NCBI GenBank assembly: GCA_020341815.1
Contig: CP070837.1
Location: forward strand, 216,209-280,208
Reading direction: 5' to 3'
DNA length: 64,000 nucleotides
DNA from: Candidatus Omnitrophota bacterium
GTDB lineage: Bacteria; Omnitrophota; Gorgyraeia; JAFGHF01
A model generated the notes under the pieces. It had not been told where the DNA came from. It saw only the letters and a program-made list of their open reading frames with translations, and made no database searches. Shown here piece by piece: positions 34,774 through 46,495 of the stretch. The number at the start of each line of letters is the position of its first letter. Within the stretch, counting starts at the first letter, position 1. Both the position numbers and the translations under genes were made by a program.

Positions 34774-35559
34774 ATGCAATACATCTTCGATTATTGGCCC
34801 GGCCTAAAGCCGAGATTGCAAGCAGCCAAGCGCATTCTTTTATGTTTAGACTTTGACGGCACCCTTACTCCCATTAAGCCGACTCCGCATGAACCTAAGC
34901 TTGAGAGAGATATTAAGTTGCTTTTGCGCAGGATATCTCAAGATAAATCTTTTGTTGTGGGAATTGTCAGCGGCCGTACATTAAAAGATATCAAGAATAG
35001 AGTCGATATTAAAAGCTTATTCTTCGCCGGCAATCACGGACTGGAAATCTTTTATAAGAATAAAAAGTTTATTTATCCTGCGGCAAAAAAATATGTTCCG
35101 ATATTCAAGCGAATTTCCCTGAGCTTAAAAAAACATTTAAAGCTTTTCCCGGGAGCTATTTTAGAGGATAAGGGTTTTAGCCTGAGCTTGCATTACCGCC
35201 TGGTTAAAAAAGAAGAAGTCCACGCGCTTAAGAAAATATTTTTAAAGATTATCGAACCTTATTTAGCCAGGCAGAAGATAAAATTAACTTACGGTAAAAA
35301 GGTCTGGGAGCTCAAGCCCCCTGTAGAGTGGGATAAAGGAAAGGCCGTCGTAAAGTTGGCAGAAAAGTTCAAAGCAAAGGATTTGTTTACTCTATATATA
35401 GGGGATGATGTGACCGATGAAGATGCCTTCCGGGCGGTAAATAGAATTAAGGGAATGAGTATCCGCGTAGGGCAAAAAAGGGCTTCGGCTGCGCAATATT
35501 ACCTGAAGAGTGCTCAAGAGACCAAGAGGCTTTTAGAGAAGATAGACGAGCTTAAATGA
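34774..35559 (+). CDS. otsB: Trehalose-6-phosphate phosphatase (HAD-IIB)
   Basis: LLCLDFDGTLTPI HAD motif I. GDDVTDEDAF motif. Confidence 0.75.
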   Translation: MQYIFDYWPGLKPRLQAAKRILLCLDFDGTLTPIKPTPHEPKLERDIKLLLRRISQDKSFVVGIVSGRTLKDIKNRVDIKSLFFAGNHGLEIFYKNKKFIYPAAKKYVPIFKRISLSLKKHLKLFPGAILEDKGFSLSLHYRLVKKEEVHALKKIFLKIIEPYLARQKIKLTYGKKVWELKPPVEWDKGKAVVKLAEKFKAKDLFTLYIGDDVTDEDAFRAVNRIKGMSIRVGQKRASAAQYYLKSAQETKRLLEKIDELK

Positions 35560-39111: not shown

Positions 39112-40346
39112 AGACGATGGACCCGCAGGTATATAAGGCAATTGCCGCTGAAGTTAAAAGGGAGCGCAATACTATAGACCTGATTGCCAGCGAAAACTTT
39201 ACTCACCCGGCAATTCTGGAAGCCCAGGGCTCGGTGATGACAAATAAATATGCCGAGGGGTATCCTTCGGCGCGCTGGTATGACGGCTGCGAATATGTGG
39301 ATGTAGCGGAGAATTTGGCCAGGGACAGGGCAAAGAAGATATTTGGCGCCGAGCATATAAACGTCCAGCCCCATTCCGGCACCCAGGCCAATATGGCCGT
39401 ATATTTTGCTATGCTTAAGCCGGGTGATACGGTTTTAGCAATGGATTTAGCTTGCGGGGGACACCTATCTCACGGCCATCGCCAGAACTTCTCCGGGAAA
39501 TATTTTAATATTGTCTCTTACGGCGTAAATAAAGAAGACGAGAGAATAGATTATAATGAGGTGGAAAGTCTCGCCCTGAAGCATAAACCCAAGATGATTC
39601 TGGCGGGGGCCTCGGCCTATTCCAGGGTTATCGATTTTGCCCAGTTTCGTAGAATTGCCGATAAGGTTGGGGCTTTTATTTTAGCCGATATCGCCCATAT
39701 TGCCGGCCTCATAGCCTGTAAGCTTCATCCTTCGCCCGTTCCGCATGCCGAGTTTGTCACTACCACTACCCATAAGACCTTGCGCGGACCCCGGGGCGGA
39801 ATGATAATGTGCCGGAAAGAATTTGCCAAAAAAATAGACAGCGAGGTTTTTCCGGGTATTCAAGGGGGGCCCCTGATGCATGCTATCGCGGCAAAGGCCG
39901 TAGCCTTTAAGCTTGCGCTTGAGCCTGAGTTTAAGGATTATCAAAAAAGCATAATTGCCAATGCCAAAAGATTGGCTAGTGAATTACAAAAGAGGGGTTT
40001 GCGTATTGTCTCCGGCGGAACAGACAATCACCTGCTCCTTGTGGACTTAAGAGCTAAAAAGATAAACGGAAAAGAGGCCGCTTCCAGTCTTCACAAGGCC
40101 AATATCGTGGTAAATAAGAACTTGATTCCTTTTGACCCTCTGGGGGCAAGGCTGACCAGCGGCTTAAGATTAGGCACCCCTTCTGTCAGCGCCAGAGGAA
40201 TGAAGGAGGATGAGATGACCCAGATAGCCTGTCTAATGGACGGGGTTTTGTCCTCTTGCGAGGACAAAAAGACAATAGAGATGACCAAACAGGAAGTAGT
40301 TAAACTTACCAAAAAGTTCCCTTTATATAAGGAGCTCACAGCGTGA
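39099..40346 (+). CDS. glyA: Serine hydroxymethyltransferase
   Basis: [24 protein letters not shown]-lysine motif. Confidence 0.9.
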
Positions 40347-40813
40347 AAACCGAAAGCAAAATGAAAAAAGATGCCCGCCCCAGCTGGGATGAATATTTTT
40401 TGGAGATTGCCGGGATTGTCTGCAAACGCTCTACCTGCTTGCGCAGAAAAGTGGGTGCTTTAATTGTAAAGGGAAGGCGCATCCTGGCTACCGGTTATAA
40501 CGGCACACCCAGCGGAATAAAGCATTGTGCTGAAGTAGGCTGCCTGCGCACAAGGCTTAATATTCCTTCAGGCCAGAGGCATGAGCTCTGTAACGGCTTG
40601 CATGCCGAGCAGAATGTCCTTTTGCAGGCGGCACTTTACGGGATTAGTTTAAGAGAGAGCAGTCTTTATGTTACCCATCAGCCCTGTATCATTTGTGCCA
40701 AAATGATTATCAATGCCGGGATAACGGAAGTAGTTATTGCCGGTGAATATCCCGATGAGATGGCCCGCAGATTTCTGGATGAGGCGGGAATAAAGGTGCG
40801 TAGGGTGGGATGA
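40343..40813 (+). CDS. dCMP deaminase / ComEB-family cytidine-deoxycytidylate deaminase
   Basis: HAEQNVL ... PCIICAK zinc-binding motifs. Confidence 0.8.
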
Positions 40814-40899
40814 GTCCGAAAAATCGCATTTTTTGACAGAAATAAAGCTAAAAACACAAAGAGAGAAAGTTAGCTATTAATTATTAAGCATAAAATATT

Positions 40900-41661
40900 A
40901 TGGAAAAAATAAAAACAACTCTTAGAAAGTTAATAGAAGAAGCTGGAGTTTTGCTAAAAACTTCTAGTAAACAGGAATTAGCTTTTCAAAAAGCCCATCG
41001 TTGGGTTGAGCGAAGTGAAATATTATTGAAGAAATATTTTTCTGCCGAGGAAGCCAATAAATTCAAAAATACAAGAGGTGGTATTCGAATGGGTGATCCA
41101 TGGGGGAACCTTCATAGAATGATAAAACCAAAAATATCTTTCCTTGAAGTTTTACAAGAAGAACTTGAAATCCATCCTGATTTTTGGAAAGAAGAATTAA
41201 ATAGTGATTTAAATGAAAGTAATAAAAATGACTATCGCGAAGGTTTCTTTATAAACGGACAATATTATGAAGCACAAAAAATTATCCGTAAAATGGTTTT
41301 ATCTGCAAAAAAGTCGATTTATCTTATTGACAATTATATAGACGAAAATGTTTTAGATTTATTGACAGACAAAGAATCATCGGTGATTGTCAATATATTA
41401 ACTAGATCCATCAAGCCCTCTCTTAAGGCTGCTGCACAAGCATTTAATAAACAATATGGCGGAATGCAAGTAAGAACATCAAATAATTTTCACGATAGAT
41501 TTATAATAATAGATGATTTAACTTTATATCATTTAGGAGCGTCGATTAAAGATTTAGGAAATTTATCTTTTATGTTTTCCTTAATTGAAGAAAAAGCAAT
41601 AATAAATATGTTGACAAAAAAATGGAATAAAGAATGGAAGCAAGCAACAACTATTGTATAA
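40900..41661 (+). CDS. PLD-like (HKD-superfamily) domain protein with unknown N-terminal domain; AT-rich island gene 1
   Basis: 253 aa. C-terminal half shows the PLD pattern AKKSIYLIDNYI..VLDLL...VIVNILT then HDRFIIIDD...GAS (HxRxxxxD in place of HxKxxxxD). Local GC about 30% against about 47% genome. Confidence 0.5.
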   Translation: MEKIKTTLRKLIEEAGVLLKTSSKQELAFQKAHRWVERSEILLKKYFSAEEANKFKNTRGGIRMGDPWGNLHRMIKPKISFLEVLQEELEIHPDFWKEELNSDLNESNKNDYREGFFINGQYYEAQKIIRKMVLSAKKSIYLIDNYIDENVLDLLTDKESSVIVNILTRSIKPSLKAAAQAFNKQYGGMQVRTSNNFHDRFIIIDDLTLYHLGASIKDLGNLSFMFSLIEEKAIINMLTKKWNKEWKQATTIV

Positions 41662-41685
41662 ATAACAATTTAGCAACTCGTTGTA

Positions 41686-42147
41686 GTGAATCTAACAAGG
41701 CAGCATTTTAGGTCGCTGATTTCAAATATTGTAGGAAAAGAAATGCCCAATCCATTTAATCCATTAGACTGGTTAACTGCTGCTCAAAATTGGTTTGCCA
41801 GAACAGAAAAATCTAGTGGTTTCCGACCATATCTCATACTTTTAATATTAGTTTTCGGTCTCGCTATGATACTTCTAACTTTCTTTAATAAAGAAGGAGA
41901 ATTTACAAGCTTTATTATTTTACTTATTTCGATACCGCTTGGCATTTTTATCTTACTCTATATTATAAAGTGTTTTCAAGATCCAAACTTTTGTAGATCA
42001 GAAAAACATATAGAAACTGTTCGCCGTATTGAACTTATGCAACAAAAAGGAGAATCTAGACCAACTATAATAAAAACAGAACATATAGAATTAATTTCAA
42101 AACCAAAACATCCATCTTTACCTCCATCCAAAGGAGGTGCTAAATGA
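41686..42147 (+). CDS. Small membrane protein (2 predicted TM helices); island gene 2
   Basis: 153 aa. Hydrophobic segments YLILLILVFGLAMILLTFF and FIILLISIPLGIFILLYII. AT-rich. Confidence 0.5.
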   Translation: MNLTRQHFRSLISNIVGKEMPNPFNPLDWLTAAQNWFARTEKSSGFRPYLILLILVFGLAMILLTFFNKEGEFTSFIILLISIPLGIFILLYIIKCFQDPNFCRSEKHIETVRRIELMQQKGESRPTIIKTEHIELISKPKHPSLPPSKGGAK

Positions 42148-42428
42148 AAAAAGCATATCTCCTTACATTTAGCAATAGCTTAGGAACGCAAGAGGAAGTG
42201 AAAGAATGTTTAGATACAATTTCTGCAGTAGAAATTTGGCGTTATGATATGCTAAATGCTTTCTATATTATTTCTGAAGATAATGCAGAAAGAATATTTA
42301 ATCAAATTAAAAGACATTTTAATAATAATGGAAGATTTATAATCGCCGAAATTACTGATAATAGTCAAGGCTGGCTAACCAATAAATCATGGTATCTAAT
42401 TGAAAACAAAGAGATTAAAGAAGGTTAA
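42144..42428 (+). CDS. Hypothetical 94-aa protein; island gene 3
   Basis: ATGA overlap with gene 2. AT-rich. No family motif recognised. Confidence 0.45.
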   Translation: MKKAYLLTFSNSLGTQEEVKECLDTISAVEIWRYDMLNAFYIISEDNAERIFNQIKRHFNNNGRFIIAEITDNSQGWLTNKSWYLIENKEIKEG

Positions 42429-42458
42429 AAATGCTTCTTATAAGGAGAATCAGAGGTA

Positions 42459-42914
42459 ATGAAATGTCCTTATTGCGCAAATCTGGAGGATAAAGTGGTG
42501 GATTCGCGCCTGGCGACAGAAGGCAGCTCCATCCGCCGCAGGCGGGAGTGCCTTAAGTGCCAGAGGCGCTTTACCACTTATGAATATATTGAAGGGACTC
42601 CTTTAATGGTGGTGAAGAAGGATTCGCGACGCGAGCCCTTTGAGCGCAAAAAGATTTTGGCAGGATTAGTCAAGGCCTGTGAAAAAAGGCCGATAAGCAT
42701 GCAGCAGCTGGAAGAGCTCGTAGATAAAATAGAGTTCACCCTGCAGAAGAATTATGATAAGGAAGTAAAGTCAAAAGATATCGGGGAGCTCCTGATGAAG
42801 ATGCTTAAGGAGCTCGATGAGATAGCTTATGTGCGCTTTGCTTCCGTATACCGCCAGTTTAAGGATATCAGCCAGTTTATGGAAATCTCCAGGAAATCCA
42901 GGCACGAAGCTTAA
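42459..42914 (+). CDS. nrdR: Transcriptional repressor NrdR
   Basis: MKCPYC...C.KC zinc ribbon plus ATP-cone. Confidence 0.85.
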
Positions 42915-42922
42915 GGACCCCA

Positions 42923-45829
42923 GTGGCCATAAACCTTGAAGAGCAAATATTGAGCGGCCTTAATGCCGCGCAGAAAGAAGCGGCCCGGCATGACAAGGGG
43001 CCTCTTTTGATTATTGCCGGAGCCGGCACCGGAAAGACCGCAGTGATTACCCGCCGCATCGCCCACCTTATTTCCACAAAGCGCGCCCGTCCTGAAGAGA
43101 TATTGGCTTTGACCTTCACCGATAAGGCCGCCTCCGAGATGGAGGAGAGGGTGGACATGCTTGTGCCTTATGGCTATACCGATATCTGGATTTCTACATT
43201 TCACGCCTTCGGCGATCGCATCCTGCGCGAGAATGCATTGGAGTTGGGTCTGGATCCGGAATTTCAGGTTTTAACCCGTCCCGAACAACTCATCTTTTTA
43301 AAAGAGCACCTCTATGATTTTAATCTGGATTACTATTCTCCCAAAAGCGACCCCACCCGTTTTCTGGAGGCGCTTTTGGCCCTGTTTAGCCGCTTAAGAG
43401 ACGAAGATGTTTCCTGGGAGGAGTATCTAAAATATGCAAAAGGGCTGCAGGAAAAAGCCGACGGTAAAGAAGCAGAAGAAAATGCCAAAATACAAATGGA
43501 GCTGGCCTCGGCCTATGAGGTATATCAGAGACTCCTGATGCAGGAAGGCAAGGTGGATTTTGCCAATCAGGTGTATCTCGCCTTACATCTTTTGCGCCGG
43601 CACCCCTTAATACTTAAGCGCTACCAGAGGCAGTTTAAATATATCCTGGTGGATGAGTTTCAGGATACCAATTACGCTCAATTTCAGCTGGTGAGATTGT
43701 TGGCCGAAGGGCATAAAAATATTGTTGTCGTCGGAGACGATAACCAGTCTATCTTCAAATTCCGCGGGGCGGCCATCAGCAATATCCTTAACTTTATGGA
43801 ATATTATCCTCAGGCAAAAAGGATCGTCCTTACCGAGAATTATCGCTCGACCCAGACAATCCTGGATCAGGCATATCAATTGATAAAATATAACGACCCC
43901 GATACCTTAGAGGTAAAATGCAATATCAGCAAAAAATTAGTGGCCCGGGAAAACGAGGGCCCTTCCATTAAACACCTGCATTTTGATACGGGCGCCTCGG
44001 AAGCCGATGAAGTGGCGCGCCTGATTGAGGAAAAGGTAAGGCAGGGAAATCTCTCTTTCGGCGATATAGCAATTCTGGTGCGCTCCAATAATGATGCCGA
44101 AAGCTTCCTGCGCGCCTTGAATATGCGCTCTATCCCCTGGCGCTTCTCCGGAAACCAAGGACTTTATTCTCAAGAAGAGATTCGTTTTTTAATTTCTTTT
44201 TTACGCACTATCGCCAATCCCGATGACAGCGCAAGCCTCTATCATCTGGTGAGCTTTCCGGAAGTATATAATCTGGATATGGCCGATTTGACTCGCTGCC
44301 TTAACTGCGCCCATTATAAAAACCGCTCTTTATTTACCGTCTTTAGCCGCCTGGATGAGTTTGGCGAGCTTCGCGAAGTTTCAGAAGAGAGCAAAGCCCG
44401 GATAAAAAAGATTGTCGAGGACATCAATTATTATTTAAAAGAGGCAAGAAATCTTTCCACCGGAAGACTGCTTTATCTATTTTTACAGCAAAGCACCTAT
44501 CTTGAGAAATTGGTAAAGGAAGAAAGCTTAGTTAATGAGCAGCGCATCAAAAATATCGCCCGTTTCTTCAGTATTCTCAGCAACTCCGAAAACCTCTCCC
44601 AGGAGAATCGTCTTGCGTCTTTCATCCGCTATTTAGATATGCTGATTTCCTCCGGAGACGACCCGGCGCTACCTGAGGCCGATTTGGATTTGGATGCGGT
44701 CAATGTCCTGACCATACATAAGGCCAAGGGCTTGGAGTTTGAGATAGTCTTCATGGTGAATCTGGTCCAGGGGCGTTTCCCCTGGCCCAGAAGGCGCGAG
44801 AGCCTGGAAGTGCCTCTTGAGCTTATCAAAGATATTCTCCCCGCGGGGGATTATCATATTCAGGAGGAAAGAAGGCTCTTTTATGTGGGGATGACCCGGG
44901 CCAAGAAGGAGTTATATCTTACCTGTGCCCTTGATTACGGAGGAAAGCGCCTGCGTAAGGTGAGCCAGTTTGTGTTTGAGGCCCTGGGAAAGAGCCCGCA
45001 GAAACCTGAGATAATCAAGACCCAGGCCAAAGAGGAAATCGAGCGTTTTGCCCCCCGTGCGCCCGCACCCTTTTTAAAAGAAAAGCCCATGGCAGAAAGT
45101 GAGCTTTTGCAATTGAGCTTCCGCCAGATCGACGATTATCTCACCTGCCCCCTGAAATACAAATATGTGCACATTCTGCACATTCCCATTATGCGCCATC
45201 ACAGCGTGGTTTACGGCAGCGCAATTCATAAGGCAATCGTAAATTTCTATCAGGCTAAATTCAATAAAAAGAGCTTTACGGAAAATGATTTAATCAAAAG
45301 TTTTTCCGCGGCCTGGAAAAATGAGGGCTTTTTATCGCGCGACCACGAAGAGCAGAGATTTGCCCAGGGGCAAAAGACGCTTAAGCGCTTTTATGCCTCG
45401 GAAAAAGAAAAGGCCGCGCCGGCTTCCGTAGAAGAAAGCTTCAATTTCGTCCTGGGTAAAGATAAGATTGCCGGCCGCTGGGACAGGATTGACGGGGCAG
45501 GGAGTGAGGCGGTAATTATTGATTTTAAGACTTCCGATACAGTCAAGAAGCAGGAGCAGGCAGATAAGAAAGTTAAGGAGTCCCTGCAGCTTTCAATTTA
45601 TGCTCTGGCTTATCGTATAATTAAGGGTGAGCTTCCTTCCAGGGTCGAGTTGCATTTTGTAGATACGGGCCTGGTGGGCAGCGCCCGGCGCACAGAAAAG
45701 GATTTCGAAAAACTCGGGGAGCTGATTAAAGAGGCATCAGGCGGCATCAGGACAAGAAAGTTTCCGGCAAAGCCCGGATATTTTGCCTGCAATTATTGCG
45801 CATATCGTGAGGTCTGTCCTCATACTTAA
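42923..45829 (+). CDS. UvrD/PcrA-family ATP-dependent helicase fused to a C-terminal RecB/AddB-like PD-(D/E)xK nuclease domain with Cys cluster
   Basis: 968 aa, GTG start. Helicase motifs GAGTGKT, LVDEFQDTN, VGDDNQSIF, VLTIHKAKGLEF. C-terminal ..CPLKY...IIDFKT...CNYCAYREVCP. Confidence 0.75.
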   Translation: MAINLEEQILSGLNAAQKEAARHDKGPLLIIAGAGTGKTAVITRRIAHLISTKRARPEEILALTFTDKAASEMEERVDMLVPYGYTDIWISTFHAFGDRILRENALELGLDPEFQVLTRPEQLIFLKEHLYDFNLDYYSPKSDPTRFLEALLALFSRLRDEDVSWEEYLKYAKGLQEKADGKEAEENAKIQMELASAYEVYQRLLMQEGKVDFANQVYLALHLLRRHPLILKRYQRQFKYILVDEFQDTNYAQFQLVRLLAEGHKNIVVVGDDNQSIFKFRGAAISNILNFMEYYPQAKRIVLTENYRSTQTILDQAYQLIKYNDPDTLEVKCNISKKLVARENEGPSIKHLHFDTGASEADEVARLIEEKVRQGNLSFGDIAILVRSNNDAESFLRALNMRSIPWRFSGNQGLYSQEEIRFLISFLRTIANPDDSASLYHLVSFPEVYNLDMADLTRCLNCAHYKNRSLFTVFSRLDEFGELREVSEESKARIKKIVEDINYYLKEARNLSTGRLLYLFLQQSTYLEKLVKEESLVNEQRIKNIARFFSILSNSENLSQENRLASFIRYLDMLISSGDDPALPEADLDLDAVNVLTIHKAKGLEFEIVFMVNLVQGRFPWPRRRESLEVPLELIKDILPAGDYHIQEERRLFYVGMTRAKKELYLTCALDYGGKRLRKVSQFVFEALGKSPQKPEIIKTQAKEEIERFAPRAPAPFLKEKPMAESELLQLSFRQIDDYLTCPLKYKYVHILHIPIMRHHSVVYGSAIHKAIVNFYQAKFNKKSFTENDLIKSFSAAWKNEGFLSRDHEEQRFAQGQKTLKRFYASEKEKAAPASVEESFNFVLGKDKIAGRWDRIDGAGSEAVIIDFKTSDTVKKQEQADKKVKESLQLSIYALAYRIIKGELPSRVELHFVDTGLVGSARRTEKDFEKLGELIKEASGGIRTRKFPAKPGYFACNYCAYREVCPHT

Positions 45830-45955
45830 TCAGTATCTAGTATTTAGTATCTCGTATCTAGTCGATAGTATTTAGTAAAATAAAAACACTTATAAATATT
45901 AAAAATTATATAAAAAAGTTTTTAACTAGATACTAGCGACGAGCGACTAATAACT

Positions 45956-46159
45956 GTGAGGAACGCAGTGACGAACAATTGTCCACATTGCCAGAAGCCT
46001 ATATATGATGATGACGCCTTATTATGCCTTTATTGCGGCGAAAGCTTAAGCCGTGATGTGGGCGTTCTGGGAAAGCTAAAGTATTATCGCCCCAGGATAA
46101 TCATTGCACTTATAGTGCTTTTGATTGTATCGGCTTTTGTTATATTAATTATTAGATAA
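45956..46159 (+). CDS. Small zinc-ribbon membrane protein (67 aa)
   Basis: CPHC..(12)..CLYCG followed by one TM helix. GTG start. Preceded by a repeat-rich AT-rich leader. Confidence 0.45.
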   Translation: MRNAVTNNCPHCQKPIYDDDALLCLYCGESLSRDVGVLGKLKYYRPRIIIALIVLLIVSAFVILIIR

Positions 46160-46177
46160 AGAAAAGGAGAGATAAGG

Positions 46178-46495
46178 ATGCTTAAATTCGAAGATTTCAA
46201 AAAGATGGATATTAGAATCGCCACTATTGTTGAGGCGGAAAAAGTATCCGGCGCGGATAAGCTTTTGAAATTGATTGTTGATTTGGGTGAAGAAAAAAGA
46301 CAGCTCATTGCCGGCATAGCCTTGCAATATGAAGCACAGGATGTAATAGGAAAGCAGGTTCCGGTGCTCTGCAATCTTGAGCCGGCAAAAATCAGAGGGG
46401 TGGAAAGTAACGGTATGGTCTTATGCGCGACGGCGCCTGATCCGGTTTTGCTTTCGCCGCTAAAAAAGGTGCCCGCCGGCAGTAAAATAAGGTGA
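46178..46495 (+). CDS. tRNA-binding domain protein (CsaA/Trbp111/MetRS C-terminal-like)
   Basis: 105 aa. FKKMDIRIATIVEAEKV..ADKLLKL.VDLGEE.RQ..AGI motif. Confidence 0.7.
   Translation: MLKFEDFKKMDIRIATIVEAEKVSGADKLLKLIVDLGEEKRQLIAGIALQYEAQDVIGKQVPVLCNLEPAKIRGVESNGMVLCATAPDPVLLSPLKKVPAGSKIR

Follow-up and report, generated by a model that had tools for sequence, protein, structure and literature searches.

The window analysed here is a 64,000-bp stretch of a 1.55-Mb contig (CP070837.1) from a metagenome-assembled genome (MAG) of Candidatus Omnitrophota, and our subject is an AT-rich segment within it, at positions 40814–42458. The segment runs from the stop of a dCMP/cytidine deaminase gene (dcd, 40343–40813), assigned by Pfam and synteny, to the start of nrdR (42459–42914), whose product carries the Zn-ribbon and ATP-cone recognised by Pfam. 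Both flanking genes, the segment and the parts of it described below are on the + strand. Three open reading frames (ORFs), here termed g1, g2 and g3, occupy 40900–42428 and are identical to NCBI JSV30_01445, JSV30_01450 and JSV30_01455, respectively. The first encodes a protein with a C-terminal domain of the phospholipase D (PLD) fold, the second a membrane protein with two transmembrane (TM) helices, and the third a small soluble protein. The segment has a GC content of 0.298, whereas the window averages 0.457. In windows of 1645 bp the standard deviation (SD) of GC is 0.028, which places the segment about 5.6 SD below the mean, and it is the only part of the 64 kb to fall below 0.35 in 500-bp windows. 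An AT-rich island of three ORFs between the deaminase gene and nrdR had been reported in a preliminary description of this DNA, made from the sequence alone, and both the composition and the ORFs are as described there.

To place the segment in context, synteny was compared over 80 nrdR loci, nearly all from Omnitrophota, whose NrdR proteins are 62–75% identical to that of the window. The gene order rpiB-glyA-(dcd)-nrdR is kept across these loci. In 49 of them nrdR comes directly after dcd, at a distance of 0–558 bp that is mostly shorter than 200 bp, and in most of the rest it abuts glyA. Homologs of g1, g2 and g3 are found at none of the 80 syntenic loci. An empty dcd-nrdR site in relatives had been set beforehand as a check on the proposal of horizontal acquisition, and this is what was observed. 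Because the block is conserved in 80 relatives, none of which has the island genes, we regard the segment as an insertion. Its horizontal acquisition is well supported, with the proviso that the nearest relatives available for comparison are those just 62–75% identical in NrdR. It could be argued, on this last ground, that the AT-rich stretch is ancestral or an artefact of composition. Such a view might also draw on the lack of mobility genes, tRNA genes and direct repeats at the borders: there is no recombinase ORF in the island, a tRNA scan of 30–52 kb of the window returned none, Rfam and repeat scans of the island were negative, and the flanking repeats are short, AT-rich and at chance level. 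Against it, the site is empty in every one of the syntenic relatives, the GC content deviates by the 5.6 SD given above, and both modules of the segment (see below) recur in unrelated hosts and mobile elements. An ancestral origin is therefore very improbable.

The spacer of the closest relatives gives some indication of what was displaced. In the eight closest, the dcd-nrdR spacer measures about 190 bp (322 bp in L015). In these relatives (L015–L022), a TTGACA promoter and a palindrome (ACACTATATATAGTGT) overlap each other some 80 nt ahead of nrdR, and about 30 bp downstream of the palindrome lies a second box, half-related to the first. This arrangement resembles the tandem NrdR-box layout. 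In the window, the promoter/NrdR-box-like region is gone, and the island lies between spacer-like remnants of about 85 bp on the left and about 20–30 bp on the right. The likely left remnant of the ancestral spacer (40814–40897), proposed from alignment with L016–L021, includes TTGACA at 40832 and a stretch aligning to the relatives' 'TTAGCTAAAAATAATTATTGACA'; its junction with the island is not sharp. On the right, nrdR is preceded by a spacer of only 30 bp (42429–42458) that holds its ribosome-binding site, and no terminator is predicted between dcd and nrdR. Since the promoter and the NrdR-box-like palindromes are missing, nrdR may have lost its autoregulation and may depend on read-through from the island.

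Do the three genes constitute one cassette? The preliminary description treated them as a single integrated system in which the PLD protein, the membrane protein and the small protein cooperate. The genes do share a strand, tight spacing and an equally low GC content, with no predicted terminator between them. At other loci, moreover, g2-g3 is often co-directional with, and less than 100 bp from, a different defence gene, a placement which could mean that g2-g3 acts as an accessory to its neighbours. What tells against cooperation is the distribution of the genes. Neither g2 nor g3 occurs in the fetched flanks of any of 36 loci with a g1-type PLD gene, and among about 20 independent g2-g3 loci, g1 is found at none except that of the window; each module occurs alone many times. 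A suspected co-occurrence of g1 and g2 homologs on one 20,294-bp contig turned out to involve two different contigs of equal size. Because co-occurrence is not seen elsewhere, we see in the island two independent modules placed side by side, the common situation in defence islands. The single-system view is already largely refuted, and we give it only a slim chance.

The first module is g1 (40900–41661; 253 aa), in which a helical N-domain precedes a PLD-fold C-domain. In the AlphaFold2 (AF2) model, the N-domain (approximately residues 1–110, 40900–41229) is predicted to be all-helical at a predicted local distance difference test score (pLDDT) of 45–73, while the C-domain (approximately residues 113–253, 41236–41658) exceeds 90. 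The C-domain is also recovered by PADLOC, by Foldseek and by a TrmBL2 profile. Foldseek comparison with the PDB retrieves both catalytic PLD folds (Nuc 1byr, NucT, Zucchini, SauUSI, PLDs and PSS) and non-catalytic ones (TrmB/TrmBL2, the top matches, FAM83 and MITD1); the TM-score to Nuc 1byr is 0.68 relative to the target. The PLD superfamily fold is thus confidently modelled. The putative active site departs from the canonical HxKxxxxD...GSxN motif, which is absent. In its place the g1 family has H-D-R-xxxx-D...G-A-S-x-K, represented in g1 by H198-D-R200-FIII-D205...G213-A-S215-I-K217 (residues 198–217, 41491–41550) in the homolog alignment. HDR replaces H-x-K in all 120 homologs retrieved, Lys follows GxSx, in the place of the GSxN Asn, in 117 of 119, and H198, D199, R200, D205, G213, S215 and K217 are invariant in the family. 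The PLD fold with Arg for the catalytic Lys, inferred earlier from g1 alone, is thus upheld. An hhalign alignment superposes the g1 HDR on the HDK of Nuc, with Arg at the position of the HKD Lys, and is indicative only. Each chain contains a single copy of the motif, which would suggest a homodimeric active site. In these respects g1 resembles the single-HKD nucleases Nuc, NucT, Zucchini and BfiI, which have the alpha/beta PLD fold, one motif per chain, and the same His, Asp and Ser positions; it differs from them in having Arg for the HxK Lys and Lys for the GSxN Asn, and its sequence similarity to Nuc is marginal (E = 0.5 for the g1 family profile against Nuc 1byr).

The same family profile matches TrmBL2 far better (E = 1.6e-6 over about 170 residues), and it was the profile alone that reached TrmBL2, as searches of the PDB with the g1 sequence gave nothing. 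The main rival explanation for g1 is accordingly that its PLD-like domain is non-catalytic, serving in ligand binding or oligomerisation as in TrmB and TrmBL2, and that g1 is a regulator or a nucleoid-associated protein. TrmB-like proteins provide both the best profile match and the top Foldseek matches, the canonical Lys is missing from g1, and relatives of g1 fuse the domain to N-domains of DNA-binding type (ORF6N, RhuM), reminiscent of the layout of TrmB/TrmBL2, in which an N-terminal domain and helices are followed by the PLD-like C-domain. TrmBL2, however, lacks the HDR and GASxK residues, that is, the His, Arg, Ser and Lys that are invariant in the g1 family. In addition, no DNA-binding or helix-turn-helix (HTH) domain is detected in g1 by Pfam, and g1 does not have the winged HTH that marks the TrmB/TrmBL2 family. 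The invariance of the motif across fusions to different N-domains points instead to an active or phosphate-binding site. We therefore judge the non-catalytic role unlikely.

The g1-type PLD domain is widespread (1187 matches) and is fused to varied N-domains, namely ORF6N, RhuM, DUF2321 and unannotated helical domains of about 110 aa. The N-domain of g1 itself was called novel in the preliminary description, and it has kept that status: it has no significant family in Pfam, NCBIfam or PHROGs, and phmmer finds no similarity between its 112 N-terminal residues and the N-termini of 119 homologs. A defence island (L001, 2380–6659) harbours the closest homolog (52% identity), which adjoins PDC-S11-like and PDC-S18/DUF5655-like genes and an HmaA-type SNF2 helicase with NOV_C. 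Another homolog, P0029, sits in a mobile-element-like region (L128, contig Ga0212089_10001116) along with ParB_N, a DUF87 ATPase, Hjc and many small ORFs without a family. Residues 101–221 of g1 also match positions 300–451 of the 478-position NCBIfam model NF040700 ('VPA1262 family N-terminal domain', E = 5.6e-8), and the C-domain has weak matches to Pfam DUF7436 (E = 0.19) and PADLOC MkoB (E = 0.01); these matches suggest further families with this PLD-like domain.

It had been stated that the gene combination could not be matched to any named system, and a PADLOC search had been suggested. That statement stands for g2 and g3 and fails for the C-domain of g1, residues 98–245 of which match two PDC-S05 models, PDLC04869 (E = 2.9e-43) and PDLC04879 (E = 3.1e-39). 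PDC-S05 comprises about 40 hidden Markov models, mostly of the RhuM/ORF6N N-domain, and just these two include a g1-type C-domain. RhuM proteins match 34–38 of the models through their N-domain, whereas g1 and all of its relatives of about 255 aa match only positions ~140–303 of the two PLD-bearing models; neither RhuM (PF13310) nor ORF6N (PF10543) is found in g1 by Pfam. Because only the C-domain part is matched, g1 is a relative of a PDC-S05 subset by virtue of a common domain, not a strict member. The two have in common a C-domain of about 140 aa, the invariant HDR...GASxK, a single-gene organisation and an association with defence islands; they differ in the N-domain, which is RhuM/ORF6N in PDC-S05 and unique in g1. 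A single RhuM-type representative of PDC-S05 has been assayed by others; in E. coli it protected about 1000-fold against the phages T7 and T5, and for T4 the protection was about 10-fold (bioRxiv 10.1101/2024.09.26.614923). An earlier proposal saw RhuM proteins as toxins of restriction-modification loci (PMC3710099). A literature search on RhuM+PLD or ORF6N+PLD combinations found nothing relevant.

The second module consists of g2 and g3. Translation of g2 most probably starts at the ATG at 41743, which is favoured by homologs and by the NCBI annotation and gives a protein of 134 aa (41743–42147); an alternative first GTG at 41686 would give 153 aa. Hydropathy predicts TM helices at 41827–41886 and 41911–41976, followed by a cytoplasmic tail with the conserved sequence FCRSEKHIETVRRIELMQQKGES.P. 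We retrieved 67 homologs of g2, each about 135 aa long. The ORF of g3 (42144–42428; 94 aa) has a GGAGG ribosome-binding site ahead of its start and overlaps the end of g2 by 4 nt (ATGA), so the translational coupling of a two-TM protein to a small soluble one, noted in the preliminary description, is borne out. The g3 product is modelled as a ferredoxin-like fold with a pLDDT of 97. Searching with exact words yielded only 3 g3 proteins, the query included, whereas an exhaustive profile search yielded 421 cluster representatives (50% identity, E <= 1e-3). Cultured collections are a different matter: by tblastn with g3 variants, the family is present in one of the 72,556 plasmid records and in none of the 50,697 phage records. 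Neither g2 nor g3 has a significant family in Pfam, NCBIfam or PHROGs other than PHROGs of unknown function, and g3 has no significant match in BFVD.

The g3 loci compared, some of them retrieved with a 5-sequence alignment, lie on encoding contigs, on viral and metagenome contigs and on one plasmid. A two-TM protein of 116–161 aa precedes the g3 homolog at 20 of the 21 loci that could be assessed, nearly always with a 4-nt overlap. The g2 protein of the window and the divergent two-TM partners on viral and plasmid contigs are related to one another (hhalign probability 95.7%, E = 9e-9, 104 columns), and both subfamilies have two TM helices and the tail motif D(P/R)(N/D)xxxSE(K/E)(H/Y)...QKG(D/E)..P. 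We conclude that g2-g3 is an unnamed, recurrent two-gene module with obligate pairing. At the one exceptional locus (L161, 5154–6318), the g3 homolog P0235 follows a gene for a LOG/SLOG-family protein of 241 aa (LDcluster4), and a SpoIIAA-like gene lies upstream; that contig ends 62 nt after g3, so a partner may lie further downstream. Some g3 proteins are longer. Representative P0313 (224 aa) joins the g3 domain to a C-terminal weak match to GIY-YIG (E = 0.0024, below the Pfam cut-off), and other long members have unannotated or low-complexity tails. As a clue to function these fusion partners are uninformative, amounting to the sub-threshold GIY-YIG match and a probable gene fusion with an amidase.

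The immediate neighbours of the pair, mostly co-directional, include several defence genes: a CD-NTase and Cap15 of a cyclic oligonucleotide-based antiphage signalling system (CBASS) at L013/L014, an Abi/PD-T4-5-like gene on the Acinetobacter plasmid pXBB1-6 (L107), a GmrSD-like DUF262+HNH protein (L115) and PDC-M34A/B (L116). Together with the PDC-S05 match and the L001 island, these neighbours uphold the defence-like context that had been suggested. Elsewhere the pair adjoins an integrase (L095) or, on gut viral contigs (L096–L106), Xre-type HTH genes. ParE lies about 0.4 kb upstream at L110, with a small ORF in between, and YfbU about 0.2 kb upstream at L118. The literature yielded nothing relevant under the RefSeq accessions of the two Acinetobacter proteins. 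The GC content of the pair is below that of its flanks at 16 of 17 loci, by as much as 14–21 points at L010 and L007, and the spacing can be very tight: 5–7 bp separate the pair from a co-directional neighbour where it follows ispG (L010, 4654–5357) and where it precedes the GmrSD-like gene (L115, 5085–5722). Tight spacing and low GC together suggest a promoterless cassette that inserts at the ends of operons.

From these features we infer an anti-phage role for the segment, an enzymatic activity for g1, an interaction between g2 and g3, and the mechanistic steps that follow. Two copies of the g1 C-domain would come together as a phosphodiesterase of Nuc type, in all likelihood a nuclease, and act as the effector, with His198 as nucleophile and Arg200 and Lys217 binding phosphate. 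The helical N-domain would take the place of the RhuM/ORF6N domain of its PDC-S05 relatives and provide recognition, specificity or regulation. The g2 protein would reside in the inner membrane with both tails in the cytoplasm, and the cytosolic g3 protein would bind or control it in the manner of RexAB; on infection, g2 would disrupt the membrane or block entry, leading to abortive infection or exclusion. Precedents for this design are the RexAB-type systems (PMC12894663) and gp30/gp31 of Butters (PMC7542560), which likewise consist of two adjacent genes for one membrane and one cytosolic protein, near the integrase/repressor region of prophage-like contigs. The analogy is one of design only: g2-g3 has no sequence similarity to RexAB (no PADLOC match), g2 has two TM helices in 134 aa, g3 is unrelated to RexA, and homology to RexA/RexB is not found.

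Two other roles for g2-g3 deserve consideration. The main rival is a toxin-antitoxin (TA) or addiction module, in which a small membrane toxin and a cytosolic antidote would stabilise defence islands and mobile elements without themselves sensing phage. Such a module would be expected to show the obligate pairing and the translational coupling seen here, as well as the carriage of the pair on a small plasmid and on viral contigs, its proximity to ParE and to DUF433/DUF5615 TA genes, and its form as a low-GC cassette at varied insertion sites. Yet the pair resembles no known TA family in Pfam, NCBIfam or PADLOC, the membrane-protein-first order is atypical for type II TA, and TA and abortive-infection roles are not mutually exclusive. 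On balance, we think an addiction role improbable. Alternatively, g2-g3 could be a phage 'moron' that serves in superinfection exclusion, lysis timing or stress, its proximity to defence genes reflecting common integration hotspots. The presence of the pair on 12 viral contigs, beside an integrase or an Xre repressor-like gene, is in line with this idea, as are the match to PHROGs of unknown function and the several loci with housekeeping neighbours only. It is countered by the absence of the pair from recognisable lysis cassettes and by its non-phage contexts (the window, the neighbourhood of CBASS, a plasmid), and exclusion would itself be defence. A moron role of this kind seems quite doubtful.

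Our preferred interpretation, to which we assign a probability of roughly 55%, is that the segment is a horizontally acquired, defence-type island in the dcd-nrdR spacer that brings together two independent modules, a PLD phosphodiesterase and a RexAB-style membrane module. Several points weigh against it. For g1, the canonical HKD Lys is absent, the closest solved relative by profile is the non-catalytic C-domain of TrmBL2, and we know of no PLD enzyme of HxR type with demonstrated activity. Judged by its sequence, g1 also lacks the defining domain of PDC-S05, and the C-domain of the validated PDC-S05 gene is not stated in the preprint or its supplements (bioRxiv 10.1101/2024.09.26.614923). 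For the second module, g2 and g3 match 0 families in PADLOC-DB v2, and g3 has no match in Pfam or among PDB sequences. The modelled g3 fold is generic, with many unrelated ferredoxin-like folds scoring nearly as well. In Cas2-type enzymes, beta1 ends with a catalytic Asp (D11 in BPSL1038; PMC10491678, a paper that gives nothing on gene neighbourhoods); this Asp is not conserved in the g3 family, where positions 10–11 are S, N, D, E or G, and g3 differs further from the ferredoxin-fold nucleases BPSL1038, Cas2 and VapD, with 12% identity and no profile match. The defence association of g2-g3 rests on raw counts over about 20 loci, and at several of them (L010, L008, L108 and L114) the neighbours are exclusively housekeeping genes, ispG and dnaE among them. 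Finally, the island bears none of the signatures of mobility (integrase, tRNA target, direct repeats).

A bolder proposal is possible, and we put it forward tentatively. According to it, g2-g3 would be an unrecognised, self-contained anti-phage or exclusion system spreading as a compact cassette of low GC, or else, more unusually, a portable accessory found beside varied effectors (PLD, CBASS, Abi, GmrSD, PDC-M34), and g1 would represent an active HxR clade of PLD phosphodiesterases with swapped N-terminal specificity modules. In g1, a known candidate family takes on a new domain architecture, and g2-g3 is an unnamed module of familiar design. If g2-g3 does work in defence or exclusion, a very small (~0.7 kb) two-gene system would be added, one represented in metagenomes by at least 421 clusters of sequences (50% identity) and nearly absent from cultured collections. 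If the HDR site is catalytic, it would supply a mechanism for the PLD-bearing subset of the abundant RhuM/ORF6N (PDC-S05) candidates, and the g1-type domain would be shown to be a transferable effector. The locus would also offer a clean natural case of a defence cassette lodged inside a housekeeping operon, where it takes the place of the autoregulatory nrdR promoter. None of this overturns current ideas, and defence candidates of such design are numerous.

Some further observations concern the surroundings of the island. The only NrdR-box-like site in the window, at 35389, lies inside a coding region and was dismissed as a chance match. Just downstream of nrdR is a gene for a UvrD/PcrA-like helicase of 968 aa (42923–45829), with a host-like GC content. 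Of the 80 relatives, 79 lack a counterpart of this helicase downstream of nrdR, so that synteny ends at nrdR; the remaining locus, L083, has a 31% match. Directly after the helicase gene, at 45801–46300, is the window's second-lowest GC content (0.35 over 500 bp).

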